A DNA stretch of 64,000 nt, taken from positions 32,001-96,000 of IMG/VR virus record IMGVR_UViG_3300013121_000037; one strand, written 5' to 3'. The stretch is from a virus. Taxonomy: Duplodnaviria; Caudoviricetes. Within the stretch, counting starts at the first letter, position 1. Each line of letters begins with the position of its first letter. Made by a program: the position numbers and the translations under genes. The notes under the pieces were generated by a model that worked only from the letters and a program-made list of their open reading frames with translations, ran no database searches and had not been told where the DNA came from. Below, piece by piece: positions 22-27,963 of the stretch.

Positions 22-579
22 TCACCCATCACGCTTCTGCACAATGGCCTCGGCCAGTTCCTGGTCCGTGGTGATGCCGTCCAGACTCACCCCGTAGTAC
101 CGTGCTGTGTACTCCTGCCCGTGCGAGAGAATATCCCGCAGTAACTGCGCCTCATCTGGTCCCTTATCCCTGTCCTCGTCTTCCTCTTCTTCCTCTGCCG
201 GTGCTTCCCAGGTGTCGGGATCAGGGAAACCACCCGCGGGCAGCGGAATGTCCTTGACCTGAAAATTGTCCAGGCCCAGAGCCATCGTATCCCACTCGGC
301 GTCAATCTCGGCGTCCGTCAAGCGCTGCCCCGTCGTGGGATTGAGTTCATATCCCTGTTCGTCGTACCACTCCGCAATGCCCTGCCAGTTACCCGGCAGG
401 ACGCGATTGGCCCAGCGCTTCGCGTTTGCGGCCAGTTGCCGCAAATTCGGTGGCAACCGCCGAAAGGCCCGGCACTTTTGCAGTACCTGGCCAGTCGGGT
501 ATCCTGGCGGCAGATGCGACTCGAAATACGGCGTGGCGTGATAACTGTTCAGCGACCAGATGCTGTAATGTGCGCTCAT
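22..579 (-). CDS. Hypothetical acidic protein, possible immunity partner of the upstream polyvalent protein
   Basis: 185-aa ORF whose start overlaps the stop of the 2295-aa ORF (ATGA). Confidence 0.6.
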   Translation of the reverse strand: MSAHYSIWSLNSYHATPYFESHLPPGYPTGQVLQKCRAFRRLPPNLRQLAANAKRWANRVLPGNWQGIAEWYDEQGYELNPTTGQRLTDAEIDAEWDTMALGLDNFQVKDIPLPAGGFPDPDTWEAPAEEEEEDEDRDKGPDEAQLLRDILSHGQEYTARYYGVSLDGITTDQELAEAIVQKRDG

Positions 580-3500
580 TGGATGTTGTGTCCCGTCGCG
601 TCCTCTTCCTGCACCACCAGGATGCTGCGGTTGGGGACCACATAGTAACCCTTGCCGTAACTGTAATGCCGCGATGACTTGCCATCTACCTCAATGGCGT
701 CATAACCAGCCAGCGCTGCCTGAATCCCCAACCATTCATCCTCATCATTGTGACCGTCGCTGTTTCTGGTGGCGTGGTTACCGTTCTTGTTAAAAGTCTT
801 CGGGCATTTGGGAACCAGTTTCTCCAGTTCCGATTGCTTGATAACCTTAGCAGTCCTGGGCAACGCCGCCCGCACAATCTCGCCAGCACCATAACCAGCG
901 TATTTGCTGGCCGAATTGCCACTACCTTTGGTGCTGTCAAAGTAGGTGCCATCACCAAAACAACCATACCCGGGGAAATGCTCGCCTCGCTTGAACTGCT
1001 CCACCAGTTGCGCCGCGGTCCGTTTGCCGCTCCCGTAACCCGTATCCTTCAAGCCACGCAGCATCTCGATATGCTGACCAGTTTGCACCAGTTTATCAAA
1101 ATCTGCCTTCTTCACCACCTGCGGCAGACCATTGAAACCCCGCATCTCCTGCACCACATGCAGCGTGGCACTTCCAGGCGCATCCCCGGACTGCTTCTTG
1201 CGTTCCGTGTACTGCTGCACTGCCGGTACAATTGCTTCGATGAACTTCTTCAGGGGTTCCGACCCCTTGCCCCGGGTGGTCTGCTTGACCGAAATCGGTT
1301 GCACAGTCATCAGTTGCGCCAGATCATCCGTGCGGTGCAGCATCTGCGCCGCCTTCGCTGGCGTGGTCAGAGTCACCACCTCGCTTTCTGCCGCTGGTTT
1401 GCCCGTCTTCTGGCTGATGATGTGCGGTTCGATCTTCCCTGCCCACGGCGACCCACCCACTCGCTTGCCAACATATAAACGACCGAAGCGGGCTGTGTTG
1501 CTATCCTCGAAATCCCCCAGATGGCCGGTGATCTCCACCTGCAACCCCGTCTCCTCCCAGACCTCCTTGAGAGCGTTCTGCTGCATGCTCAAGCCCGGTT
1601 CGATTGTACCACCCGGCATGGTGTACTTGCGATCTCCGTAGGCGTTGGTCGGTTGCACGATCCAGATTCGCCCATCGGGTTCCTGTATCATCACGCTCAC
1701 CCGCTCGATCTTCTTGACCGGTGCCGGTTCCCCCACATTCTTATCCGGGGTCTTCTCCCAGAATTTTGGCGCTGCCGTTGTGAACGCCACACCATTGAGA
1801 ATTCCTGGTTTCGCCTTGCCCATCTCCCAGTTGACCTCATCCTTATCCAATCCTGGTGAGGTTGCGCCAGTGGTAGACGCTTTCCCGGGTGCTGCCGCTG
1901 GCTTGGTAGGCAAACTTTTGCTGTTGGCCTGGTTGGTGTCGCGCAGAAACTTCTTCAGGTCACGAGCGGCAAACGACTTGAACCAGTAACCTGATATATT
2001 GGGACCACCCACCCACCACGATAGTTCCGCCAGTTCCTGGCCATCGAGCAACGTATCAATCACGACATCAATATCGTCCAGATCAGTGCTAGATACCACC
2101 TGACCAGACACCAGATTGCGCAGGACATCAGCATGATTCTTGCGTACATTCCAGGTGCCAATTGGTCTTGGCAATGGTTGTCCCTGTGCCGCCGGACTGC
2201 CATTACCCGTTGACGCTGGTGTCTGTGGCGATACTGCTGGTGCTGGTGCCACGCGAGGAGGTGTGACTGGTGCCGGTGTTGAAGGTGGTGGCGTTGGTGC
2301 CTGTGGTGCTGGAACCGGCGCAGGTGGTGGCGTTGGTGGCGTAACTGGTGTTGGCGTCGGTACTGCCGGTGCTGGTTGCGGTGGCGCCGCTGGTGGCTTC
2401 TGGGCGTGATGCAGTTCCAGCACATGATTCAGTTGCGACAGACGCAGACCCAGTGCCGCCTTCTTGGCCCCGGTGGCGTTGTGGTGCTCCAGGGCAATCT
2501 GGTCAAATAGATCACCCAGACGCTTTTCCACATTGGCGCCGTGATACCGCTTGAGGGCACCGTGCGAGCGCCGCGCCGTCTTCTTGTGGTCTGCCGTCAG
2601 TGGATACTGCTTGCCAAAATCCGCCAGTTTATCCTTGAGAGACCTGTTGCTTGGCGGCAACGGTTGCTTTTTCGGCTTCGGCGCTGGTTTGGGCTGCGGT
2701 GCCGCCGTTGGCTTGGGTGTGGGTGTTGCCGGTTTCGGCGTGGCACTCTTGCCAAGCCCTGGATTGGTCTTCTTGTAGACCTTTCTGCCGGTGTGGATAT
2801 TTTCCCACACTGACCCGCCGCGTGACCCCGCCCCACTTTTGCCTTTGGGCAACTTGCGCCAGTCACTGGCCGCATAGCACACCGGCAACCGGTCCTGCTG
2901 ATACGAGGACTTCACCTCATCGACCTGCCAACCATTCTCCTCATCCCAGAACAGTTCCTGCCCAGAACCATCCAACTCTTCCAAAGCCGACTCCAGCAGG
3001 TCATCTGGCACAGTCTCCCCCAGGTCGTTGAACAGTCCCGCATACCATTCGGCCAGGGCGTGGGCGTCCACCGTGGCTTCCGGTGTGGCCGGTTCCAGCC
3101 AGTCCAGCATGTGGTCGATGCTGGACAACTTGCGGCCTATCTCTACTTGCCTGGTGCCGGTCGCCTTCCGGTGCTGCCTGTCCAGTTCATCGTGCAGCAC
3201 CGCCAACCGGTGCCGGATGTCGTCGCCATGCCGCCAGCGAAACTGACCCAGCGCCCGACGGGCCGAGTTGATTTCCCGCCCATTGAGAGGATGCTGCTGC
3301 CGATGCGGTTGCAGTTTCTGGCGCAGCAACTTCGGTGATGTGAGCGTGACAGGACTGGTCCTGCTCTGCTGGTATGTGGTTGGTTTGTCCTCGGCAGCAT
3401 CACCAACCACCCACTGCTCCCCATCCCAGCGGAAGGACACCCCTGGCAGATCGGCTGCCAACTGGTTCCAGATTTCATCGGGCACGTCCTCGCCAAAAGC

Positions 3501-6500
3501 ATCCAGCAAGGTGGCATACCACTGGGCCAGGTGCGCAAAATGCGACTGTTTACTTTTGCCCACCTCGGAGGAGGTTACCTCGGGGTCAATGAGACGCAGA
3601 CCGGTGATGTCATCCAGCACAAACTTGTTGCCAGGACGATCCTTGCCATAAGTCACGGGACGATTGCCGCCTTTGGCTGAACCTGGTACGCGCATCTGCT
3701 GTTCTCCCGCCCCCGGAATGTGCTTGAGTTTCACCAGCGTGAAATGGGTCAGCGCCCCCGGACTGAACTCAAACGGTACATTCTCCTCAACCCCCAGCAC
3801 TTCATAGGCCGAATCATGATCCTGTACCAGTTCGTACTCACCGCTGTTGGTGGACAGCGACTCCACATATATACCGCGGCGCGTCTCGATCTCAAAGGCA
3901 ATACCGCGGCCACCACCAAACGACTGTATCTTTTGCGGATCGAACGAGGTGGACACAAAACCCGGCGTTTGCAAAAACATCCCTTTTCGCTGGGCCTCTT
4001 TGGCCAGGTCAAGGAAGTTTGTTAAATCCTGGCCATGCAACTCAATACCACGCCAGACCAGCACCGGTTCCGGTAACACGGGCGCCCGCCGAATCACCTC
4101 GCGCAACCGCCCAAAGTTGCGCTCCTGCTTGTCATCCAGGTCAAACCCGCGCCGCAATGACCTGTTCAGGTCCTTGAAATTGTCATCCGTGTACCACTTC
4201 ACCGCATACTGGCCCGCCTCGGGTACCTCCGCCAGATACTCCCGCATCAGGTCCGCAATTTCTTCTGGCGCATCATCCTGATGGGTGACTGCAAACGACT
4301 TCCGCAACTGCTCCCGCTGCTCCGGAGTAAAATCCGATTCCCCCATCGGCACCGGTGACGGTTCCTCCGGCAGGTCCAGTCCGGAGAAATCATCGTCCAG
4401 GTATTCGTCCTCGTCGTCCCGGTCATTGTTCTCGGCGTAAGTTTCGCCATCGGACTTGGCTTCGTGGTAATCCTGGGTCCATTCCCCATGATCATCGTAG
4501 TCGTATTCCCCCATCGACTCCCAGCGGTACAGGTCCACCGGTTCACTGTCGGGATGATCGGGATAGGGGTTGTAGGTGGCGTGTACCACAGTGACACTGT
4601 GTTCCTCACCGCCATCTTTCCAGGTGGCCACCAGGTCATCACTGCCGGTCGGTTCCACCCGATCCGGTTCAATGGTGCCATCCCAGTCCGGAGCCTGATG
4701 CTGCTCCTCGGCATACTTCACCCCCGCGTCCACCGCCTCCTCTTCCGAGGTGGTCCACTCACTCAGCGCCTCGCCATCATCATCTTCACAGCGGAACACC
4801 GGTACCGGTTCACTGTCCTCGTCGGGTTGGTACGTCCCCTTGACCAGTATCACGTCATGCTTCGTTGACTCACTGCTGCCATCTACCTCGTACCAGGACT
4901 TGATCTCCTCCGTATCGCCAATCTCCACCTCGTCCGGGTCAATGGAGCCATCCCATGCCGGTTTCGTGGCAGGCGGTGGCGCTACCGTCCTGTCTGCTGG
5001 TTGCTCTGGACTGGCAGTCCTGCCTGCCCGCGGCGACTTTGGCTGCGCTACCCGCTCCGGTCGCGCTGACCGGTCACCAGTGGGTTTCCTGGTCAACCGG
5101 GATTTCTCGGCAGGCGTGGCAGTGGCCAGCACATCGTCAGGGATGAACCACCCACCTGGAAAATGCTGGCCCCCAATATCAATGCCGCCCTTCGGCGCAT
5201 GCCGCACCTCATAATGCCGCGACTGGTCAAAATGCGACTGTCTAGTTTTGCCCACCTCCTGCCCATCCTGGGGGAAATCATCCGCCACTGGCGTGATGAC
5301 GTAGAAGTGGTCCCAGTCGTTATCCACGAAGCGGTTATAGTCCGGGTCCTCTGGTTTTTCCGGGTCAGCGTCATCCTGTTCTGGATTGGTGGCAGGACTG
5401 TCCTGGTAAAACAGGGGCAGAGCGTCCTGCTGGTAGTTGGCTCCCGTCACCCAGTTGGACAACCGCCTGAGCAGTGTACGCGGTGGCAACTGTGGAGCAG
5501 CTTCACCAGGTTGTGGAGGCACTTGCTCCATCTCAATCGTGGTGTGCCCCGTGTGGTCCGTGCTGACCTTGTGTACCTTGAACTGCGAGGTGTGATTGAG
5601 TAACAGTTCCTTTTCTGCCTCCTGGAAATGACCATGCGGCGTCACATCCAGACCATGCTTCGCCACAATCCGCAGTGTGACCAATCCCCGAAATGACACT
5701 GGAACTTCCTTTGCTGTCGAGGTGGACACATATCCTCCCATCAGCGTCGTGCCTTTGGCATGTGCCACCCCTGTCATTCCTTCAACAAATGCAGCAGCAT
5801 CTCGCTTTACCTTCTCCACTTGCTCCGGAGTCATGTTCGGTTTGATCTGGAACATGCCACGCACCACGTTGACCGGTTCACGGAACACATTCGCCTTACG
5901 AAAGGCATTCTGCAGGTGCTCGTGCGTGGCGGCGACCCGGTTGGGAATTTTTTTGCCCCGCCGCAAGGCCCGGTTCAAGGGTTGATCACCCTTGTAGGTA
6001 TAGTGCAGTACCGCTGCCGCCTCGTCCTGAGTCAGGTCGGGACGCGCCCCGTCTTCCAGTTTGGCATTGGGCGCAGCCCGCTCCAGAGGTGCCCGCATCC
6101 AGGCCCGCTGCACATGCTCCTTCATGTGCGGTTCAGCCCGCTCCCATTGCTCCTTCGAGATTACCGAACCTCCCGGGTGCTTGATACCAGCAATCTCGAT
6201 CTTGCCCTTCGGGGCATGCTGCCCTGTCTGCAATTGTGCCCGTTCCTGAGGTGTGGCTCTGGCTACCACCTCGGAAGGAACATATTCCCCACCCTTGAAA
6301 AACGTCCCCTGGATGGTGGCCCCGCCCTTCGGCGCATGTACCACCTCATAATCCAACCGCTCATACTCTCTCGGTGGCGTTAGCAAATGCTGGGCCCGCG
6401 GCACCACAGCATCCGCCAGCGTCAACGCCCGCGCCAGCGACCTCGTCTCATCCAGACTGGCCAGCACCGCCGCCTGGTACAGGTCGCTATTCCCAGCTGC

Positions 6501-7463
6501 ATTCATCCTCTGCAGTAGCGTAGCCACCAGCGAGGCCGGAACCCGGCCATACTGCAGCGGTTGCCCTGACCGCTGATACGGTGCGTGCAGGTCACGCTCC
6601 TGTAGCGACTCTTCCATGTCCTTCTGCTGCACAAAGCGGGTCGTTTCCCGGACCGCCGTCCGCACTGCCCGCAAGGTCGCCATGGGGTTGGTGACCGTGC
6701 TGTAAGCCAGATAGGCCAGACTGCCCCACGGAATCAGGTTGATCGGTAACGCCAGATTCGACAGTTTCAGGGCAGTCAGCGTCTCATCCAGGTATTCCTG
6801 CCGCTTCTCGCTGGCTACCGGTAGCAATACCGCGGCCGGGTCCTCCACAAAGGCATCGGCAGCATCCATGGCGGTGTCCAGGAACTCATCCGCCACCGCC
6901 ACAATGGCCGCGGTCTTCGCCACACTCTCCGGGCTGCCACCCTGCTCCCGGGCTACCTCCTTCACCAGTTCCAGCGCCGACTTTCTGGGTAACTCCAACA
7001 ACTCCTGCACTGCCGCCACCTGCTCTTTGAGATGATCCGGCACCTTCTGGAGTTGCTTCAGCAGGAAAAGTCCCGCCTCGGTTTCCGTCTGGCCAATCTT
7101 CTCCAGCACTTTTTGGCCCACCTGTGCCAGCGGTGCATGCCACCCTGGTTTCGCTGGTGCTGGTCGTGGTTGCGGTTTCTGCTGGATATGCTGTGCCCGC
7201 CGCTGGCCCAGTTTCCGCACCTTCGGTTGCGGCACGCCCGGTCTGGCACGACCAGTTGGTTTGACTGGTGCTGGAGTGGCTTTGGGAGTGGGTGCTGCCG
7301 TACTGCCGCCGCTGCCCTTCTTCGCGAATTGTCCCTTGTTCTTCGGCTGACCCCGCGGGTGCTGCTGGGCATCGAAGTCGTAGTGCAGAGCTTGCAGCGT
7401 GGCCAGTTCGTCCAGGGCACGTTGATAGGCCACCACATAGCGATCCGCAGGCATATCGGTCAT
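576..7463 (-). CDS. Phage polyvalent protein: two VIP2-like ADP-ribosyltransferase domains, Nudix hydrolase, C-terminal ART-like domain
   Basis: ART1 VVRG..YVSTS..EKELLL (~5520-6040); ART2 VWRG..FVSTS..EYELV (~3720-4210); Nudix box PGGTIEPGLSMQQNALKEVWEETG (~1545-1620); C-terminal LRG..FGDGTYF..GYDAI; HPRGQPKNKGQF and HAPKGG motifs. Confidence 0.85.
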   Translation of the reverse strand: MTDMPADRYVVAYQRALDELATLQALHYDFDAQQHPRGQPKNKGQFAKKGSGGSTAAPTPKATPAPVKPTGRARPGVPQPKVRKLGQRRAQHIQQKPQPRPAPAKPGWHAPLAQVGQKVLEKIGQTETEAGLFLLKQLQKVPDHLKEQVAAVQELLELPRKSALELVKEVAREQGGSPESVAKTAAIVAVADEFLDTAMDAADAFVEDPAAVLLPVASEKRQEYLDETLTALKLSNLALPINLIPWGSLAYLAYSTVTNPMATLRAVRTAVRETTRFVQQKDMEESLQERDLHAPYQRSGQPLQYGRVPASLVATLLQRMNAAGNSDLYQAAVLASLDETRSLARALTLADAVVPRAQHLLTPPREYERLDYEVVHAPKGGATIQGTFFKGGEYVPSEVVARATPQERAQLQTGQHAPKGKIEIAGIKHPGGSVISKEQWERAEPHMKEHVQRAWMRAPLERAAPNAKLEDGARPDLTQDEAAAVLHYTYKGDQPLNRALRRGKKIPNRVAATHEHLQNAFRKANVFREPVNVVRGMFQIKPNMTPEQVEKVKRDAAAFVEGMTGVAHAKGTTLMGGYVSTSTAKEVPVSFRGLVTLRIVAKHGLDVTPHGHFQEAEKELLLNHTSQFKVHKVSTDHTGHTTIEMEQVPPQPGEAAPQLPPRTLLRRLSNWVTGANYQQDALPLFYQDSPATNPEQDDADPEKPEDPDYNRFVDNDWDHFYVITPVADDFPQDGQEVGKTRQSHFDQSRHYEVRHAPKGGIDIGGQHFPGGWFIPDDVLATATPAEKSRLTRKPTGDRSARPERVAQPKSPRAGRTASPEQPADRTVAPPPATKPAWDGSIDPDEVEIGDTEEIKSWYEVDGSSESTKHDVILVKGTYQPDEDSEPVPVFRCEDDDGEALSEWTTSEEEAVDAGVKYAEEQHQAPDWDGTIEPDRVEPTGSDDLVATWKDGGEEHSVTVVHATYNPYPDHPDSEPVDLYRWESMGEYDYDDHGEWTQDYHEAKSDGETYAENNDRDDEDEYLDDDFSGLDLPEEPSPVPMGESDFTPEQREQLRKSFAVTHQDDAPEEIADLMREYLAEVPEAGQYAVKWYTDDNFKDLNRSLRRGFDLDDKQERNFGRLREVIRRAPVLPEPVLVWRGIELHGQDLTNFLDLAKEAQRKGMFLQTPGFVSTSFDPQKIQSFGGGRGIAFEIETRRGIYVESLSTNSGEYELVQDHDSAYEVLGVEENVPFEFSPGALTHFTLVKLKHIPGAGEQQMRVPGSAKGGNRPVTYGKDRPGNKFVLDDITGLRLIDPEVTSSEVGKSKQSHFAHLAQWYATLLDAFGEDVPDEIWNQLAADLPGVSFRWDGEQWVVGDAAEDKPTTYQQSRTSPVTLTSPKLLRQKLQPHRQQHPLNGREINSARRALGQFRWRHGDDIRHRLAVLHDELDRQHRKATGTRQVEIGRKLSSIDHMLDWLEPATPEATVDAHALAEWYAGLFNDLGETVPDDLLESALEELDGSGQELFWDEENGWQVDEVKSSYQQDRLPVCYAASDWRKLPKGKSGAGSRGGSVWENIHTGRKVYKKTNPGLGKSATPKPATPTPKPTAAPQPKPAPKPKKQPLPPSNRSLKDKLADFGKQYPLTADHKKTARRSHGALKRYHGANVEKRLGDLFDQIALEHHNATGAKKAALGLRLSQLNHVLELHHAQKPPAAPPQPAPAVPTPTPVTPPTPPPAPVPAPQAPTPPPSTPAPVTPPRVAPAPAVSPQTPASTGNGSPAAQGQPLPRPIGTWNVRKNHADVLRNLVSGQVVSSTDLDDIDVVIDTLLDGQELAELSWWVGGPNISGYWFKSFAARDLKKFLRDTNQANSKSLPTKPAAAPGKASTTGATSPGLDKDEVNWEMGKAKPGILNGVAFTTAAPKFWEKTPDKNVGEPAPVKKIERVSVMIQEPDGRIWIVQPTNAYGDRKYTMPGGTIEPGLSMQQNALKEVWEETGLQVEITGHLGDFEDSNTARFGRLYVGKRVGGSPWAGKIEPHIISQKTGKPAAESEVVTLTTPAKAAQMLHRTDDLAQLMTVQPISVKQTTRGKGSEPLKKFIEAIVPAVQQYTERKKQSGDAPGSATLHVVQEMRGFNGLPQVVKKADFDKLVQTGQHIEMLRGLKDTGYGSGKRTAAQLVEQFKRGEHFPGYGCFGDGTYFDSTKGSGNSASKYAGYGAGEIVRAALPRTAKVIKQSELEKLVPKCPKTFNKNGNHATRNSDGHNDEDEWLGIQAALAGYDAIEVDGKSSRHYSYGKGYYVVPNRSILVVQEEDATGHNIQ

Positions 7464-7589
7464 CGTCTCGTCTCCTCTGACAGATGCCTGCCAGAGTAGA
7501 CGAAAACGGAATCCAGTGAGAAATGCGGTCCGAGATGAGCACTGCGCAAAATGTAACTGTCTACTTTTGCGCAGTGCCAGTGGAATGGG

Positions 7590-7787
7590 TCAATCCAGAT
7601 TGGTCTGGTCAGCCTGTTCAGCCAGGATGTCGCTGGCGCGGTCGGCGACCTGCTGCGGGTCCAGACCCTGCTGCTGGGCTTTCTGAACCAGTGCCTTGTG
7701 CGCCCGGCGTTCTTTGGCCACCTCGGCAGAACTCTCCTCGGCGTCCAACCATTCTTCAGTGCTCAACTGCAATTCGTCCGGCATCAC
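7590..7787 (-). CDS. Small protein, possible antitoxin of the upstream GNAT domain
   Basis: 65-aa ORF overlapping the stop of the GNAT protein and ending just before palindrome 7541. Confidence 0.5.
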   Translation of the reverse strand: MMPDELQLSTEEWLDAEESSAEVAKERRAHKALVQKAQQQGLDPQQVADRASDILAEQADQTNLD

Positions 7788-9727
7788 GCACCACCTTTCC
7801 GCTTCTGGAGATACTTCGCCAGTTTGTACTGCGCCCAGGAATTCTCCCGCAGGTCAAACCGCGCCTCATTCAGACTCTGCCCATGCACCAACCACCAATC
7901 CGCACCGGTGATCTTCTCCCGCTTCCGCTCCGGTCGCCCCCGCTTTTTGTCAAACTCGGACAACTTCGTCCTTATATTATTCGCTTCCTCGGGTGGAAGA
8001 TTTACTTCAGGTGCGTCAAAGATGTCCTGCACCGTTTCGGCATCCGGGAACAGTGCGGCCACCTTCTGGCCCAGACTGCCCTGATAGACTTTGAGCGTGG
8101 CAATGGTCTGGTCGTAGCCAAAGAGCGGCCAGGTGTAGTAACCATTCATGCCGCCGCCAAACCCGCCTGCCGCCCAGGTGGCAATGTAGTCAAATCCATG
8201 CGCCGTAGCGTTGTCTACCTGTCGGGTGAAGAGTTCCAGACCAACGCCTTTGGGGGCACTGTCGGCAGTTTCCAGCAACAGGTTGTGGATATAACGCCGC
8301 CCCTGACTGTCCACGCCAATAAAGCGCTCGGCAGAATCCAGATGGGTATGGAAACCATCCACCCGGAGTCCCCAGGAACCCGGCACGTCGTCATCCTCCC
8401 CCACCCGCAGCACCGTCACACGGCCATCATCTGGCATGCCCGCCAGTGACGCCAGCGCCTGGTAGGCAGCCTTCTCCTGCTCTGCGGACGTACCAGTATG
8501 GAATGCCTGTGGGAACAGTTTTCGTAACTGGTCCAGCACCTCCTGTCTGGATACACCACGCTCCAGAGACACCGAAGCCTGACTGACCGGCAACCGCTCC
8601 CGCTCATAAGGTGGCGCCTGCGCCGGTACAATCGCCTGCAGGTTGTCCAGTTCATCCTCAACCGGTTCCGCTTCCTCTTCTTCCTCCTCCGGAAGCGGCA
8701 TATCCTGTTCATCAGCCCGCTCGTTAACTTCGGCAACCACCTGGTCACGGTCTGTGGACCAGTCCCCTACCGCAGTTTCACTGTTGCTGCTGTCCCGTTC
8801 CTCCCAGCGCCACACATCCTGTGCTTCACTGTCAAGATCATCCGGGTAGGGGTCATAGGTACCCGGAACCACATAGATGTTCTGCTCCCAGACATTGTTA
8901 TCATCATCCACATGGTTCCAGGATCGCGTCAGTTCCCGGTCCCGCCAGTCCCGGTCCACAGCGTCATCGTCAATCGTGCCATCCCAATCAGGCAAATCCT
9001 CATTATTATCGCTGGCATAAGAATTGCCGTCCTCAATGGCTTGCTGGCGGTCAGCAGTCCACTCACCCACCTCCAGTTCGTTGCCAGCGTCATCCCTGGC
9101 CTCCCAGCGCCACACATCCCGAATTGGACTACCACTTACATCTGGGAAGGGATCATACTCCCCGTGTACCAGAACCACCTGATTTTGTTCTGGCACACCA
9201 TGCCGATTCACGGTGCGAAAACGCTGCAATCTCTCTGCTACCCGCTCATCAGGGGCAACCGTGTCAATGTTCTCATCCACCGTGCCATCCCACTGCGGTA
9301 GCGGTTTCGGTTTGCTGGATGGTTTATCCTGCGCTGGCTTGCTGGCAGGTTTCCCACCCGCTGGCTTTTCCGGACGCTCAGGCGGCGTCTGCCGGGGTTT
9401 CTGCCCACCACCCGGTTTCCCGGTCAACCGTGCCTTCTCCGCTGGCGTAGCCTGGGCCACCACCTCTGCCGGGATGAACTGGCCCCCCTTGAACTTCTGG
9501 CCCCCAATCGAGATGCCGCCCTTCGGCGCATGGCGTGCCTCGTAATGGGCCGACTGCGTAAAAGTAGACTGTTTTGTGGAAAAACTTTTGCCCACATCGT
9601 GATCGTCCACCACGGGCAAGTCAGCGATACCCCAATCAGCAGGGACTGGTTCAGCGGCAGACACCAGTGTGATATGACTGGTGTCATCATCCAGAAACCT
9701 TGACCGTTGCGCAGTTGCTATCATCAT
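7784..9727 (-). CDS. Polyvalent protein with HAPKGG tag, two acidic WDGT repeats and C-terminal GNAT-like acetyltransferase
   Basis: KGVGLELFTRQV..ATWAA..NGYYTWPLFGY GNAT-like motifs; start MMIAT overlaps the portal stop. Confidence 0.7.
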   Translation of the reverse strand: MMIATAQRSRFLDDDTSHITLVSAAEPVPADWGIADLPVVDDHDVGKSFSTKQSTFTQSAHYEARHAPKGGISIGGQKFKGGQFIPAEVVAQATPAEKARLTGKPGGGQKPRQTPPERPEKPAGGKPASKPAQDKPSSKPKPLPQWDGTVDENIDTVAPDERVAERLQRFRTVNRHGVPEQNQVVLVHGEYDPFPDVSGSPIRDVWRWEARDDAGNELEVGEWTADRQQAIEDGNSYASDNNEDLPDWDGTIDDDAVDRDWRDRELTRSWNHVDDDNNVWEQNIYVVPGTYDPYPDDLDSEAQDVWRWEERDSSNSETAVGDWSTDRDQVVAEVNERADEQDMPLPEEEEEEAEPVEDELDNLQAIVPAQAPPYERERLPVSQASVSLERGVSRQEVLDQLRKLFPQAFHTGTSAEQEKAAYQALASLAGMPDDGRVTVLRVGEDDDVPGSWGLRVDGFHTHLDSAERFIGVDSQGRRYIHNLLLETADSAPKGVGLELFTRQVDNATAHGFDYIATWAAGGFGGGMNGYYTWPLFGYDQTIATLKVYQGSLGQKVAALFPDAETVQDIFDAPEVNLPPEEANNIRTKLSEFDKKRGRPERKREKITGADWWLVHGQSLNEARFDLRENSWAQYKLAKYLQKRKGGA

Positions 9728-12513
9728 ACCACCTGATCCAGATACAGGACATGCACGGTTTTCTGGCCCACTTTTTTTTGTTCCATCCTGGTGCAAGCAA
9801 AGCGACTGTTATGCGGTAGCATCATTTCATCCTCTTTAGGAACCATGCTATAGGGCATGCCATCCAATCCCAGTCGTGCTCGAATCACCAGCACCACATC
9901 TCCTTCTTTTACAAACTGATGCTGGTCACTGGTACTGGTAGAAACAATGCCAGCAAATTGCAGCAGTTTGCCTTTTTTGGCCTGCAGTGACTCCTGCGCA
10001 TCGGCCACCAATTTCTTGACAAAGTCATTGCCAGCATGACCGCTTACCCCGCGATAAACAGTCACCGGTTGCGCAAACGGTTGCGCCTTGGCAAACGCTG
10101 TCTCCAGGTGCTGTAACAGTTGAATGTCAGTTTTCGTGGCCTTGCCTTGCTGACGCAAGACCACATTTAACTGTTCGTGATAACCAGAACCAGCATAAGC
10201 ACCGATGGAATTCTTTTCGGCATTGGTCAAACTGGGACGGGTCGCATCGGGTAGCAACCTGTTGGGACGATTACCAGCATGGGGCAGAAAATCCTGATCG
10301 AAATCAAGTTGCTGGGGCATGCTTTTCAGTGCGGTCTGCAAATATTCCTTGGTAACCGTTGGCTCATACAATTTCGCCAACTTCAGCAGGCGGTCCCAGT
10401 CGGCATCTTTGGCCAAATCTGCCGTGCCTTCCTGAAACATCAAGCGCTTGAGTACACGCTGCGTGCGGGCCGCTTTGCCCTGCACCAGTTGCCCCACATG
10501 CTCGGCAACCACCTTGCCCACATCACCTACCACATGATGCCGAATGCCTGCTTCACGCGCCACCTCCTGCTGGTAGCCAAACGGCAGCGCGTTAACCAGG
10601 TCGGCCAGATGCTCAACATCACCTGGGGACAATTCGTCGGCACTCAGCATGGCCTGCACGTGAGCATGCACCTGCTCCTTTGTTTGGGGCTTGATGTCGG
10701 GATGGTGTTCATCCACCGCTTTCTTGCCCAGCAATTTGCCCAGCCACCCCGGCGAATTGGCCTGTGCCTTCAGAGCAGCCACCTTGCGCGGTTCACTCTT
10801 CTCCGCCGCCTGCAGTGCCGTATCCGGGATGAACCGTCCCCCCGGATAGAACGTCCCGTTGACGGTTACCCCACCCCTGGGCGCATGCACCTGCGCGTAA
10901 TGCGCCGACTGCGCAAAACTCGACTGTCTACTTTTGCCCACCCGCTGCATTTGTGCCGCAGGTTCCTGGTCGGCACCACCGTCCAGCCACTCATCTCCCT
11001 CCCGCTCCGGTACAGGTGTCTGCCCCAGCAAACTGTCGTCCTCTTGCTGCTGGTCAGCGTCCGGTGGTTGCTGCTGATCCATCCCGGGTTGTCCAGGCAT
11101 GCCACCGGGTTGCTGCTGCTGGCCCCCAATGACCTCATCACCCTCCTGCGGTGCGGAGGCACCTGTCAGGGCGCGTACCTCGTCCATGATGAACGTGACC
11201 CCCAGACTGGCCGCCGTCTGGATGGCCTGCAGTCGCTTCTGCGGGTCCGGTTCGTCGATGTCAAAGACCCAGCGCGGATAGATCCGGTCATAGGTGTCCG
11301 GCAAGGTCCAGCGCTGAATTACCCGCACAAAATCCCAGGTCAGCGTTTCCGCCAAATTGTTGGCATCAAAAGCAATGATCTTGCTCTTGGTGGCTGCGTG
11401 CATGGCCGCCACCCCCGTACCACCCAACCCCGAACCCTCCGTGTCCGAGGATAACGTCTGCCCTATGATAAACCGCTCCTGGAACTCGTCAATGTAGGTG
11501 ATGAGCTTGAACAGCAGTTCCGGTCCCGCCGTGGCCACATCCACATATTCCACCGGGGCCTTTTGCTGTGAATCCGGATTGCGCGGCACCAGGATATTGA
11601 CCCTTCGGGCATTGTCCTCCGCCGCCTCCTGCACCTCGCGCCGACTGCGGTCATTGCCGCTCTCGTAATACCAGAGCCGTACCCCCAACCCCGCCCGTTC
11701 GGCCCAGTCCGAGATGTTGGAAATCCACTCCATTTTGAGCCAGTTCCACCAGTACAGCACATGCCGCAAACCAATGCCGTGAATGGCCTCCGCCATCTCC
11801 GCATTCAGAAAGTCCTCATCGGAGACAATGTGCCGGTGAATGATGAACCGCTCACGCCAGTCCTGCCTTCTGAGCACCACCGCCCGCCCCCCCATCGTGC
11901 TGGAGGTGTACTCGATGCTGGCATTCGGGATGTCATCCTCCCCCGAGGCTGCATAGACGTGGATCCATGGGATATGGTCGTAGGTGTGGCCAATCTTGTC
12001 GCCATTGACCGGCAGATGCCGCTCGGCCACCAGCGAGCGAATCCCGCCAATGGCGCGGAATTGCCAGTCCAGTTGCACACCGTAACGACCATACCAGACC
12101 GCATCCAGCAGATTGCGAATCAGGTGGAACAGATAGGGAGTGCGGCGAATCACACTGGTCAGGTGCTTCTTGACAAACGTGTGCTCCTCATCGCGGTCGT
12201 CATCGGTGTCCAGATGCCATTTGAGCGAGACGGTCCCCAGATAGCGTTCCTGCAACTTGCCCATCAGGTTGACATCCACCCGCATGGCCAGAGCATCTTC
12301 CCGCGAGTGTCGCATCGCCTCATCAAAGCGCCCGTGAAAATACTTGCGCCAGGCCAGACCCAGGAAGGAGTTGAAGGTCAGGACATGCGGGATGGCAAAA
12401 CCATCGGACATTTCGCTATAGCGCACCGGAGTGCCATCCGGATACACCAACCCGCCTTGTGGCTGAGATGGCGAAAAAAAACCGTTGTGTCGCTGGCCAT
12501 TGACCGGAAACAT
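9724..12513 (-). CDS. Phage portal protein (DUF935/Mu gp29-like) fused to a C-terminal ADP-ribosyltransferase
   Basis: LDAVWYG, GIGLRHVLYWWNW, IIGQTLSS..G portal motifs; C-terminal VYRG..IVSTS..EDEMML; likely start MFPVNG at 12513, since the ORF extension upstream runs into IS sequence. Confidence 0.8.
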   Translation of the reverse strand: MFPVNGQRHNGFFSPSQPQGGLVYPDGTPVRYSEMSDGFAIPHVLTFNSFLGLAWRKYFHGRFDEAMRHSREDALAMRVDVNLMGKLQERYLGTVSLKWHLDTDDDRDEEHTFVKKHLTSVIRRTPYLFHLIRNLLDAVWYGRYGVQLDWQFRAIGGIRSLVAERHLPVNGDKIGHTYDHIPWIHVYAASGEDDIPNASIEYTSSTMGGRAVVLRRQDWRERFIIHRHIVSDEDFLNAEMAEAIHGIGLRHVLYWWNWLKMEWISNISDWAERAGLGVRLWYYESGNDRSRREVQEAAEDNARRVNILVPRNPDSQQKAPVEYVDVATAGPELLFKLITYIDEFQERFIIGQTLSSDTEGSGLGGTGVAAMHAATKSKIIAFDANNLAETLTWDFVRVIQRWTLPDTYDRIYPRWVFDIDEPDPQKRLQAIQTAASLGVTFIMDEVRALTGASAPQEGDEVIGGQQQQPGGMPGQPGMDQQQPPDADQQQEDDSLLGQTPVPEREGDEWLDGGADQEPAAQMQRVGKSRQSSFAQSAHYAQVHAPRGGVTVNGTFYPGGRFIPDTALQAAEKSEPRKVAALKAQANSPGWLGKLLGKKAVDEHHPDIKPQTKEQVHAHVQAMLSADELSPGDVEHLADLVNALPFGYQQEVAREAGIRHHVVGDVGKVVAEHVGQLVQGKAARTQRVLKRLMFQEGTADLAKDADWDRLLKLAKLYEPTVTKEYLQTALKSMPQQLDFDQDFLPHAGNRPNRLLPDATRPSLTNAEKNSIGAYAGSGYHEQLNVVLRQQGKATKTDIQLLQHLETAFAKAQPFAQPVTVYRGVSGHAGNDFVKKLVADAQESLQAKKGKLLQFAGIVSTSTSDQHQFVKEGDVVLVIRARLGLDGMPYSMVPKEDEMMLPHNSRFACTRMEQKKVGQKTVHVLYLDQVV

Positions 12514-12586
12514 AACCCTGTCCCCCACTGGTTTACGGTGCCAGTGTAGACAGAACTGGTATCCTGTAGCGATTGGCCGCTCTAAC

Positions 12587-13811
12587 GTAAACTTCCCCCC
12601 GCCTTCAGGCGTGGGGCTTTCCGGCTGAGCATTAGCCCGCCAGTTCTGGGGCAGCGTTACGAGACTGCCCAAGCCATGAAAGATTCACGGCGGCGTTGTA
12701 ATCGGCGTTCGTGGAGTATTCGCAGTGCAGACAACGAAACTCACTCTGACTCTTGCGGTTGCCCTTCTCGCAATGTCCACACTGCGAGCAAGTCCGGCTG
12801 GTGTTGCGTGGATCAACAAGGATCACTGGGACACCGGCAAGTCGAGATTTGTACTCCACGAACGAACGCAACTGAAAGAAGGACCAACCTGCATGACGTG
12901 CTCGTTGCCGCTTGCGAAGCCGTTGTTCCGTACGCTGGCGAATGCCCGTGAGTTCTTCCAGGGCAATGCCGCGTCCGGTGCCTTTAGCCGTGGCAACAAG
13001 CTGCTTGCTGATCCGATGGTTTTCGTGTCGCCGAAAGCGTGCTTCACGCCCGGCCAGATTCTTCAATCGCTTCTTCGCTCCTCTGGTTCCTTTCTTCTGC
13101 AACCGGCAACGGTTGCGCTGATGTTTCTGGCGAACATTTTCAACTTGCTCACCGGTGTGAGTGTTGCCATCCGAATCGGTGGCGATATTGACGATGCCCA
13201 GATCGACACCAATGAAGTCCGTGGCTGGGACAGGCGAACCGTCAGGAACATCTACAGTGACGAGCAAAAACCACTTGCCGTCCTTGCGCAGCACGAGATC
13301 GGCTTGCCCCTTACGCAGCGTGAACCGTTCACGCTGGTAAGCCCCAAGTACAAAGGCGACCACGATACGACCCGTCAATGTCCACAGACTTACACGGTCG
13401 ATACCCTGAAAGCCCATGACACGCTGGTCGTACGTTATAGCGGCGTGCTTGCGGAACCTGGGACGTTTACTCCTGTCCCGCTTGTACGCTTCGACAACGC
13501 GATGGATGCACAGAATAGCCGTCTGCGCTGACAACTCAAAACGCTCCCGGACCTCACGATAGAGGAGTTTTTGGGCGGTGATCTTGTTGGCGAGTTGGCG
13601 TGAGAACAACTCGCCGGCAATCCAGTCGGCGGCAGCGTTAAATCGCTCCATCGTCTGGCGGAGAGTTTCCTTTTGTTCGGCGTCAGGTAGCAATTGGAGT
13701 TGCACGGTAAGTTTCATGCTTTTATCTTAGGAATGATTCACTCAAAGGTCAATTAGTTGCAACGCGATTCCTCCCCATGCCTTTAGGCAAGGGATTCCTC
13801 GCTAGGTTCAG
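12587..13811 (-). mobile_element. IS200/IS605-family tnpB-only element
   Basis: Subterminal hairpins at ~12595-12616 and ~13771-13794; TCAA just outside the left end; right end finishes TTAC. Confidence 0.85.
12632..13717 (-). CDS. tnpB: RNA-guided endonuclease TnpB
   Basis: RuvC motifs GVDLG, ALEEL, NADYNAA; Zn finger CSQC..CLHC. Confidence 0.93.
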   Translation of the reverse strand: MKLTVQLQLLPDAEQKETLRQTMERFNAAADWIAGELFSRQLANKITAQKLLYREVRERFELSAQTAILCIHRVVEAYKRDRSKRPRFRKHAAITYDQRVMGFQGIDRVSLWTLTGRIVVAFVLGAYQRERFTLRKGQADLVLRKDGKWFLLVTVDVPDGSPVPATDFIGVDLGIVNIATDSDGNTHTGEQVENVRQKHQRNRCRLQKKGTRGAKKRLKNLAGREARFRRHENHRISKQLVATAKGTGRGIALEELTGIRQRTEQRLRKRQRARHAGWSFFQLRSFVEYKSRLAGVPVILVDPRNTSRTCSQCGHCEKGNRKSQSEFRCLHCEYSTNADYNAAVNLSWLGQSRNAAPELAG

Positions 13812-15448: not shown

Positions 15449-15648
15449 TCCCTGTCACTGCGCAAAACTCGACTGTCTACTTTTGCCCACCTGCTATGAC
15501 CATCGCACCCGTCTGTACCTGCGCCGCAGTCGCTTACCCTGCACTGGCAGGACGCGGGCAGGTTTGTCCCACTGGCGACAGCGGCGAATCTCTGCCACTC
15601 GCCGCCGCGTTTCTGCCAGTTTGTACCCGCCACGGGAGCGTGTACCCA

Positions 15649-27855: not shown

Positions 27856-27963
27856 CGACTCACCTCGCTTCTGCTGCGCAAAACTCGACTGTCTACTTTT
27901 GCCCACCTTGATCAGGAATGCGATTCACTGCTGCGCAAAATGCAACTGTCTACTTTTGCGCAG

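Follow-up and report, generated by a model that had tools for sequence, protein, structure and literature searches.

A 14-residue acidic peptide recurs behind each of three ADP-ribosyltransferase (ART) domains encoded in the head module of one tailed phage, which raises the question of what such a peptide does there and whether it acts on the ART that precedes it. The window, by which we mean the whole 64,000-nucleotide stretch analyzed, corresponds to bases 32001-96000 of one 112,344-bp contig (IMG/VR record IMGVR_UViG_3300013121_000037, Caudoviricetes), and the genes of the head module, in which the peptides lie, are all on its minus strand. One ART forms the C-terminal domain of the portal protein P0003, and the other two belong to the long protein P0001; the peptide follows within the same polypeptide in P0001 and lies near the N-terminus of the adjacent gene product, P0002, in the case of the portal ART. 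Our best, though tentative, reading is that the peptide would occlude the ART active site, in cis in P0001 and in trans in P0002, in a manner analogous to the N-terminal extension of Tri1. The ART domains are encoded as follows:

9742..10236, minus strand: ART3, C-terminal domain of the portal protein P0003 (amino acids [aa] 813-977), with R874, S911-T912-S913 and E947-x-E949 (PF03496, E 9e-15)
5526..6062, minus strand: ART1, P0001 aa 468-646 (PF03496, E 1e-27)
3714..4232, minus strand: ART2, P0001 aa ~1078-1250, the second PF03496 stretch of P0001, with a BLASTP match to ART3 and the R/STS/ExE motifs

The catalytic R, S-T-S and E-x-E are kept in all three ARTs (alignment columns R96, S141-T142-S143, E178, and E180), and PF03496 matches P0001 with 97.1 bits over two stretches and P0003 with 54.9 bits, the curated cut-off being 23.4. 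An AlphaFold2 (AF2) model of ART1 built from a nine-row alignment had a predicted local distance difference test (pLDDT) score of ~90 over the domain and matched ExoS with Z-scores of 16.2 (root-mean-square deviation [rmsd] 6.3, 160 residues aligned) and 16.1 (rmsd 2.9, 166 aligned) and C3 with a Z-score of 15.3 (rmsd 3.3, 169 aligned). ExoS/ExoT are the nearest solved relatives by sequence profile (E 6e-14) and by fold, and Tre1 is also a detectable relative (6dre_B, E 1.5e-8; Z 14.2, rmsd 2.9, 155 aligned). By profile and catalytic motif, and for ART1 also by fold, the three domains are ordinary R-S-E members of the C3/VIP2/ExoS group. The peptides that follow them are:

5295..5336, minus strand: pep1, NRFVDNDWDHFYVI, P0001 aa 710-723, which opens a block homologous to P0002 9-446
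3588..3629, minus strand: pep2, NKFVLDDITGLRLI, P0001 aa 1279-1292
9662..9703, minus strand: pep3, SRFLDDDTSHITLV, P0002 aa 9-22, the interface of the predicted ART3 complex

The peptides appear in the minus-strand translation, the plus-strand translations being meaningless, and share the consensus [NS]-[RK]-F-[VL]-x-[DN]-D-x-x-x-hydrophobic-x-hydrophobic-hydrophobic. A gap of 63 residues separates ART1 from pep1 and one of 28 residues separates ART2 from pep2, in the same polypeptide, and ART3 and pep3 are split by the gene boundary. When a leave-one-out BLOSUM profile was run over all six frames of the 112-kb genome (~224,000 positions), the left-out peptide ranked first to third among the non-training positions. 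The three peptides score 37-46 when included in the profile and 21-29 when left out, and the maximum of the three-peptide profile over 161,146 positions of unrelated HAPKGG-family proteins (see below) was 19.7; the likeness among the three is beyond chance. Peptides pep1 and pep3 are more like each other than either is like pep2, being identical at 7 of 14 residues, with R, F, and H encoded by different synonymous codons in the two. On both sides of the peptides, the linkers show no mutual likeness, are of unequal lengths, and are disordered in AF2 (pLDDT 25-40); a peptide conserved between linkers that have decayed points to the peptide itself as the target of selection. Short contigs (173-377 bases) identical to the window within positions 3400-9800 came from one activated-sludge metagenome run, which may be the source sample; their depth was low and they gave zero variants relative to the window, so that no test of selection was possible. 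No RNA run was listed as carrying the sequence. An internal translation start at the peptides was considered and rejected: the GTG codons of pep1 and pep2 are 18-19 nt from the nearest Shine-Dalgarno-like word, which is too far, and pep3 has no GTG.

An initial annotation of this DNA had reported the three peptides, each behind an R-S-E ART and before the next copy of a palindrome, and had placed the third at the N-terminus of the gene coupled to the portal-ART stop. These points hold: minus-strand translation gives the quoted peptides exactly at the positions listed, the R, STS, and ExE motifs are intact in all three ARTs, the portal stop and P0002 start form an ATGA overlap with the peptide at aa 9-22, and an in-frame palindrome lies 8-24 residues downstream of each peptide. 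The genes that carry the ART-peptide pairs are:

9724-12672, minus strand: P0003, a Mu-type portal (PF06074 Portal_Mu, E 1e-38) followed by the C-terminal ART (PF03496, E 9e-15)
7784-9727, minus strand: P0002, 647 aa, with an ATG that overlaps the portal stop
9724..9727, minus strand: ATGA overlap of the portal-ART stop and the P0002 start (ATG 9727-9725), from the sequence and the translations
576-7463, minus strand: P0001, a polyvalent protein of 2295 aa whose modules include two ARTs and a Nudix domain

P0001 is encoded two genes after the Portal_Mu gene and, with its many effector domains encoded together with portal and head genes, is a polyvalent protein of the known kind (PMC5512222). 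P0002 matched no Pfam or PHROG family, and its coupling to the portal-ART stop puts it in the place where immunity genes sit. The ARTs and the P0001 cargo are presumably packaged in the phage head and injected.

Binding of the peptide to an ART was modeled with ESMFold2 for one pair, ART3 (P0003 770-982) with P0002 1-60, and for three controls, using the ipSAE score and a mark that in calibration was reached by 51 of 78 solved complexes and by 2 of 108 mismatched pairs. The ART3 pair scored 0.86, above every calibration false positive (0.34-0.59), and the best of the three controls scored 0.00, as did P0002 1-60 paired with an unrelated 202-residue protein; across the ART3/P0002 runs, contact agreement was at least 81% and partner pLDDT at least 63. 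In the predicted interface, P0002 residues 9-24 (on to 41) lie against Y873-R874-G875, K900-G908, S911-S913, E947, and E949 and also cover the helix V838-K847 and the loop that follows STS, which together make up the nicotinamide adenine dinucleotide (NAD)/substrate face. The residue pairs predicted with low error (902:22, 903:21, 904:20, 905:19 ... 907:17) describe an antiparallel strand beside the strand leading into STS. The model supports binding of the P0002 N-terminus to the portal ART3 and places it at the active-site cleft. For the cis arrangement, AF2 was applied to ART1 with its linker and pep1: of the 95-residue tail only aa 718-724 were ordered, with a predicted four-residue strand, FYVI, at aa 720-723; in the ART3 model, too, it is this half of the peptide that forms the strand pairing.

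Tri1 has an N-terminal extension that blocks the Tre1 active site (PMC8120803), and the peptide may act in a comparable way. Together with ~20 flanking residues, it would form an ART-binding segment, the hydrophobic second half adding an antiparallel beta-strand to the strand that enters the STS motif and the basic-aromatic-acidic first half covering the NAD cleft, where it would rest on the catalytic Arg, on STS and ExE, and on the helix with the LN..LR motif; judging from the contact list, the catalytic Arg would be faced by the acidic run, and the Phe would come close to the nicotinamide pocket. ART1 and ART2 would receive the peptide in cis within the 2295-aa polyvalent protein, and ART3, fused to the portal, would receive it in trans from the translationally coupled P0002. 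We infer that packaged ARTs would in this way be kept silent during synthesis and storage and that release would come with head-maturation cleavage in the disordered flanking linkers or with unfolding on ejection; a search of the head module with Pfam and PHROGs identified no protease. A wider form of the proposal is possible, if doubtful: a portable "safety catch" of ~14 to 40 residues for virion-packaged ARTs, in which a plug for the NAD cleft is supplied both in cis and in trans, comes off only at head maturation or ejection, and amounts to a fused minimal immunity ORF (open reading frame), which in trans could also tether cargo to the twelve portal ARTs.

The three ART-peptide pairs do not have separate histories. 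In BLASTP, P0001 710-1095 matched P0002 9-446 (33% identity, E 8e-58), with the homology beginning exactly at the peptide, and P0001 372-645 matched P0003 592-975, such that P0003 590-982 plus P0002 1-446 are collinear with P0001 372-1095. This collinearity of the portal C-terminus and the P0002 N-terminus with one stretch of P0001 indicates block duplication; as read from the sequence, one block made up of HAPKGG module, ART, peptide, palindrome, HAPKGG module, and WDG repeats has been duplicated, with the ART/peptide junction a gene boundary in one copy and a 63-residue linker in the other. The ART2-pep2-palindrome unit is a third, shorter copy of the block. The palindrome, 31 bp (GCGCAAAAGTAGACAGTCGCATTTTGCGC and variants), has ~60 sites across the genome (for example, at window positions 15458-15488, 27874-27904, and 27931-27961), mostly intergenic and 10-30 nt ahead of a ribosome-binding site and an ATG. 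Within the portal, P0002, and P0001 genes there are four in-frame copies, and the copy behind each peptide translates as VGKSxQSxF. The copies behind the peptides and the HAPKGG modules are:

9554..9595, minus strand: palindrome after pep3, in frame, degenerate with a 9-nt insertion
5223..5253, minus strand: palindrome after pep1, in frame, read as VGKTRQSHFDQ
3531..3561, minus strand: palindrome after pep2, in frame, read as VGKSKQSHF
5079..5210, minus strand: HAPKGG module after pep1 and its palindrome, P0001 aa 752-795
6204-6338, minus strand: further HAPKGG module
9482-9532, minus strand: further HAPKGG module, after pep3
10873-10887, minus strand: further HAPKGG module, after the portal palindrome

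The HAPKGG module, (R)Y.A.HAPKGG..I.G..F.GG.FIP, comprises ~45 residues and has five copies across P0001, P0002, and P0003. A total of 509 proteins contain it (E < 1e-3), most of them long and polyvalent, with one to five copies each; it has no Pfam family and was not mentioned in a literature string search for HAPKGG. The peptide precedes three of the four in-frame palindromes; the fourth comes after the portal domain with at most a decayed trace of the peptide, so that the peptide associates with the ART and not with the palindrome or the HAPKGG module.

Relatives of this locus are few. In tblastn, P0002 matched none of 50,697 phage records, and a word-index protein search with P0002 returned two distant relatives only, P0005 and P0006; the same kind of search with the ART1 segment returned P0006 only among longer proteins and nothing of similar length. 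A HMMER profile of peptide, palindrome, and HAPKGG module, run against 1.8 billion representatives, gave the 509 matches, all via HAPKGG and none via the peptide, the sole match on the peptide columns, P0007, being an unrelated acidic repeat protein. A 14-row MAFFT alignment that placed the motif in P0024, P0032, and P0006 was also rejected, since it had brought together scattered residues from distant parts of long proteins. Ten of the 509 HAPKGG proteins carry related ARTs (eleven domains), and 6 of the 11 domains end the protein. Scans with an ART alignment detected nothing in IMG/VR or species genomes and one locus, L011, in metagenomes; scans with P0026, P0087, and the L011 ART detected no ART-carrying IMG/VR locus, and L002 has neither ART nor peptide. 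The phage lineage is barely sampled. In L011, an ART-ending ORF is coupled via TAATG to a 61-aa ORF, residues 9-22 of which, SRFVCSDPAEFVFE, are as far from the start as pep3 is; the profile score of this small ORF is 13.0, at about the 99.99th percentile of the background, and its likeness to the peptide is suggestive.

The layout of an ART followed by a coupled short partner recurs in other phages. Six Xp12/PaMx28-like phages (L004-L009, of Xanthomonas, Stenotrophomonas, Pseudomonas, and Variovorax) have morphogenesis proteins of ~1100-1200 aa that end in an ART and, one base past the ART stop, a conserved ORF of ~90 aa that ends GWYDALG.Y.G.ELPGSL and is annotated as hypothetical. In Enterococcus phage AE4_2 and in Streptococcus phage Javan308, the gene of an ART-ending head protein is overlapped by the ORF behind it, of 67 and 110 aa, respectively. 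These coupled ORFs agree with the finding that 89% of MuF-toxin genes have a small ORF behind them (Jamet et al. 2017, PMC5576092). A likeness of the Xp12-type ORF to the region after pep2 (WY..L...G..P) was considered and found no support in BLASTP or HMMER.

Several points count against an ART-occluding role. Related ARTs in other proteins lack the peptide: the peptide profile is at background in all post-ART regions of related ARTs, and close and distant relatives alike are without the motif; in P0035 and P0032, the ART runs directly into HAPKGG, and in P0006, the nearest relative of P0001, the ART is followed by other sequence. For L011, shuffles that preserve composition give the likeness p values of 0.09-0.37 (0.06 summed), which is not significant. 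The three pairs come from one duplicated block, so that "three of three" counts as one event. Binding is represented by one in silico complex, its score may owe something to the solved ART-immunity complexes (6DRE, 8ZA7), and the AF2 signal for pep1 docked on ART1 in cis is weak, with a pLDDT of only ~50. The peptide motif also has a fourth, weaker occurrence:

4368..4409, minus strand: pep4, DEYLDDDFSGLDLP, P0001 aa 1019-1032, located upstream of ART2 and lacking a palindrome behind it

This copy comes before ART2 and not after an ART, and the segment at the equivalent position of P0002 sits ahead of a non-ART domain. Finally, a lytic producer cell may need no protection from its own ART. The initial annotation had proposed a cognate antitoxin peptide, to be examined by modeling each ART with each peptide and by looking for the motif downstream of phage ARTs. 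Part of this survives: the trans pair ART3/P0002 passes (0.86 versus 0.00) with predicted binding at the catalytic residues and a precedent in Tri1/Tre1, and ART1/pep1 in cis gives the weak AF2 strand. The predicted enrichment of the motif after phage ARTs did not appear in the small sample available, in which scores were at background apart from the one suggestive metagenome case.

What else the peptide might be depends on how the duplication and the modeled interface are weighed. It could have no ART-directed role and be the retained N-terminus of a fused cargo gene (peptide, palindrome, HAPKGG, WDG), kept as a prohead-protease site, as a capsid-targeting propeptide of the kind found in T4 internal proteins or Alt, or as a slowly decaying linker. 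The exact start of the P0001/P0002 homology at the peptide agrees with this, as do the location of pep3 eight residues from its N-terminus, the position of every copy at a module boundary beside an in-frame palindrome, the occurrence of pep4 and of the corresponding P0002 segment in linkers with no relation to the C-terminus of an ART, and the restriction of the motif to this genome among its relatives. The extreme N-terminal location of a T4-type propeptide holds for pep3 (aa 9-22), and pep1 and pep2 would be internal unless P0001 is processed. Against it stand a complex score far above the controls and above all calibration false positives, the decay of the flanking linkers but not of the peptide, and the fourth in-frame palindrome, behind the portal domain, which is preceded by only a decayed trace of the peptide. 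We regard the absence of an ART-directed role as rather unlikely.

The modeled ART3 interface would serve equally for a docking tag, by which the peptide binds the ART for assembly and the twelve portal ART3 domains hook the cargo P0002/P0001 in the procapsid, like SPP1 gp7, with inhibition as a by-product; if this were the case, it would show how cargo loads onto the portal. P0002 occupies the post-portal gene position of the MuF/gp7-type portal-bound head proteins (PMC5576092, PMC5512222), and the greater likeness of pep1 to pep3 than to pep2 is as expected for one common receptor. A tether, however, needs no contacts with catalytic residues, pep1 and pep2 each have their own ART directly upstream, and the HAPKGG module and the HPRG..G.F N-terminal motif are better candidates for packaging tags, being widespread where the peptide occurs in this genome only; docking as the primary function seems improbable. 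The peptide could also be a counterpart of the LDLA box of ExoS/ExoT, with a chaperone or cofactor function: it would cover a sheet surface prone to aggregation or bring in a host factor, aid refolding after passage through the tail, and activate the ART instead of inhibiting it. In favor of this, ExoS and ExoT, the nearest solved relatives, carry an acidic amphipathic chaperoning motif just past the ART (PMC6141617); one structural alignment of the AF2 model reaches ExoS residue 429, in the LDLA box, but with an rmsd of 6.3, and pep4 contains LDL. Yet the LDLA consensus is absent from pep1-pep3, for which strand and not helix is predicted, the predicted contacts are on the NAD face and not on the 14-3-3 face (strands beta4, beta7, and beta8; PMC6141617), and 14-3-3 proteins are eukaryotic, all of which makes a chaperone role very improbable. 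Occlusion of the ART active site remains our preferred, if tentative, reading.

The remaining modules of P0001 and P0002 are shared with several of the same relatives. The P0001 N-terminus (window 7320-7370, aa 32-48) bears an HPRG.P.N.G.F motif that is also present in P0005, P0006, and, twice, L011. Its C-terminal domain (window 576-1300, aa ~2050-2295; GYDAIEV...YYVV.N) resembles the C-terminus of P0006 as well as domains of P0011 and P0012 that end F.P.Q(I/V)KS..N.GTF. After pep2 and its palindrome comes a small module, WYA.L...G..VPD...L....L...G....W.....W.V (window 3320-3530, P0001 aa 1313-1360), with a second copy 180 residues on (window ~2840-3000, P0001 aa 1490-1540) and another in P0107 directly before a HAPKGG module. 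Two tandem repeats of ~90 residues (window 4400-4900 and 8700-9250) are common to P0001, P0002, and P0005; they start WDG(T/S)(I/V)D, contain G.Y(D/N)P(F/Y)PD..DSEP, and belong to no known family. The C-terminal domain of P0002 (window 7784-8515, aa ~404-647), without a Pfam or PHROG family, recurs twice in P0005 and also in the IMG/VR loci L002 and L003, and appears acetyltransferase-like by eye only (a G.G... motif and GMNGYYTWP).

ARTs are among the toxins that phages carry in their heads. Should the occlusion reading prove true, it would give a simple answer to how these enzymes stay harmless in the producer cell and switch on after injection, and it would account for the many tiny ORFs behind MuF/ART genes. 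It would also mean that immunity functions can be built between the modules of polyvalent proteins, and it would provide a short peptide scaffold for inhibiting ARTs of the C3/ExoS type.

Among known systems, the locus resembles phage polyvalent proteins and T4 Alt in its multidomain effector array with ARTs and Nudix in the head module (Iyer et al. 2017, PMC5512222); the passages of that paper retrieved by a term search describe processing peptidases and contain no ART-silencing peptide between modules. Like the MuF polymorphic toxins (PMC5576092), it has a toxin domain at the end of a head protein encoded next to the portal and, downstream, a reading frame coupled to it, whereas here the carrier is the portal itself and the partner is the first ~40 residues of a 647-aa cargo protein or a segment internal to a polyprotein. 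The partner thus lies immediately downstream, as in an immunity pair, and is not a separate small protein (< ~150 aa). Neither the peptide nor P0002 showed homology to a known immunity protein, with no Pfam or PHROG match and no PDB sequence match for the peptide at E values up to 10, and on these grounds the peptide would belong to neither the Tri1 nor the MuF-immunity family. The LDLA box of ExoS/ExoT is likewise a short acidic amphipathic motif directly after an ART domain; it forms a helix, has eukaryotic 14-3-3 as its binding partner, and promotes activity (PMC6141617), unlike the phage peptides, which lack LDLA and for which a strand on the ART itself is predicted. In the cholera-toxin A1 proenzyme, an R-S-E ART is also occluded by its own chain until proteolytic nicking (PMC8120803); the occluder there is a loop within the domain and not a detachable peptide behind it. 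The comparison with Tre1-Tri1 of Serratia (6DRE/6DRH), to which the ART-ARH pair of Listeria (8ZA7) can be added, differs in that the phage peptide has no ADP-ribosylhydrolase domain, is also fused in cis after two of the ARTs, and belongs to a phage head instead of a type VI secretion system; the phage locus is like Tre1-Tri1 in having an R-S-E ART of the same superfamily, the active site of which is predicted to be occluded by the N-terminus of the next gene product.

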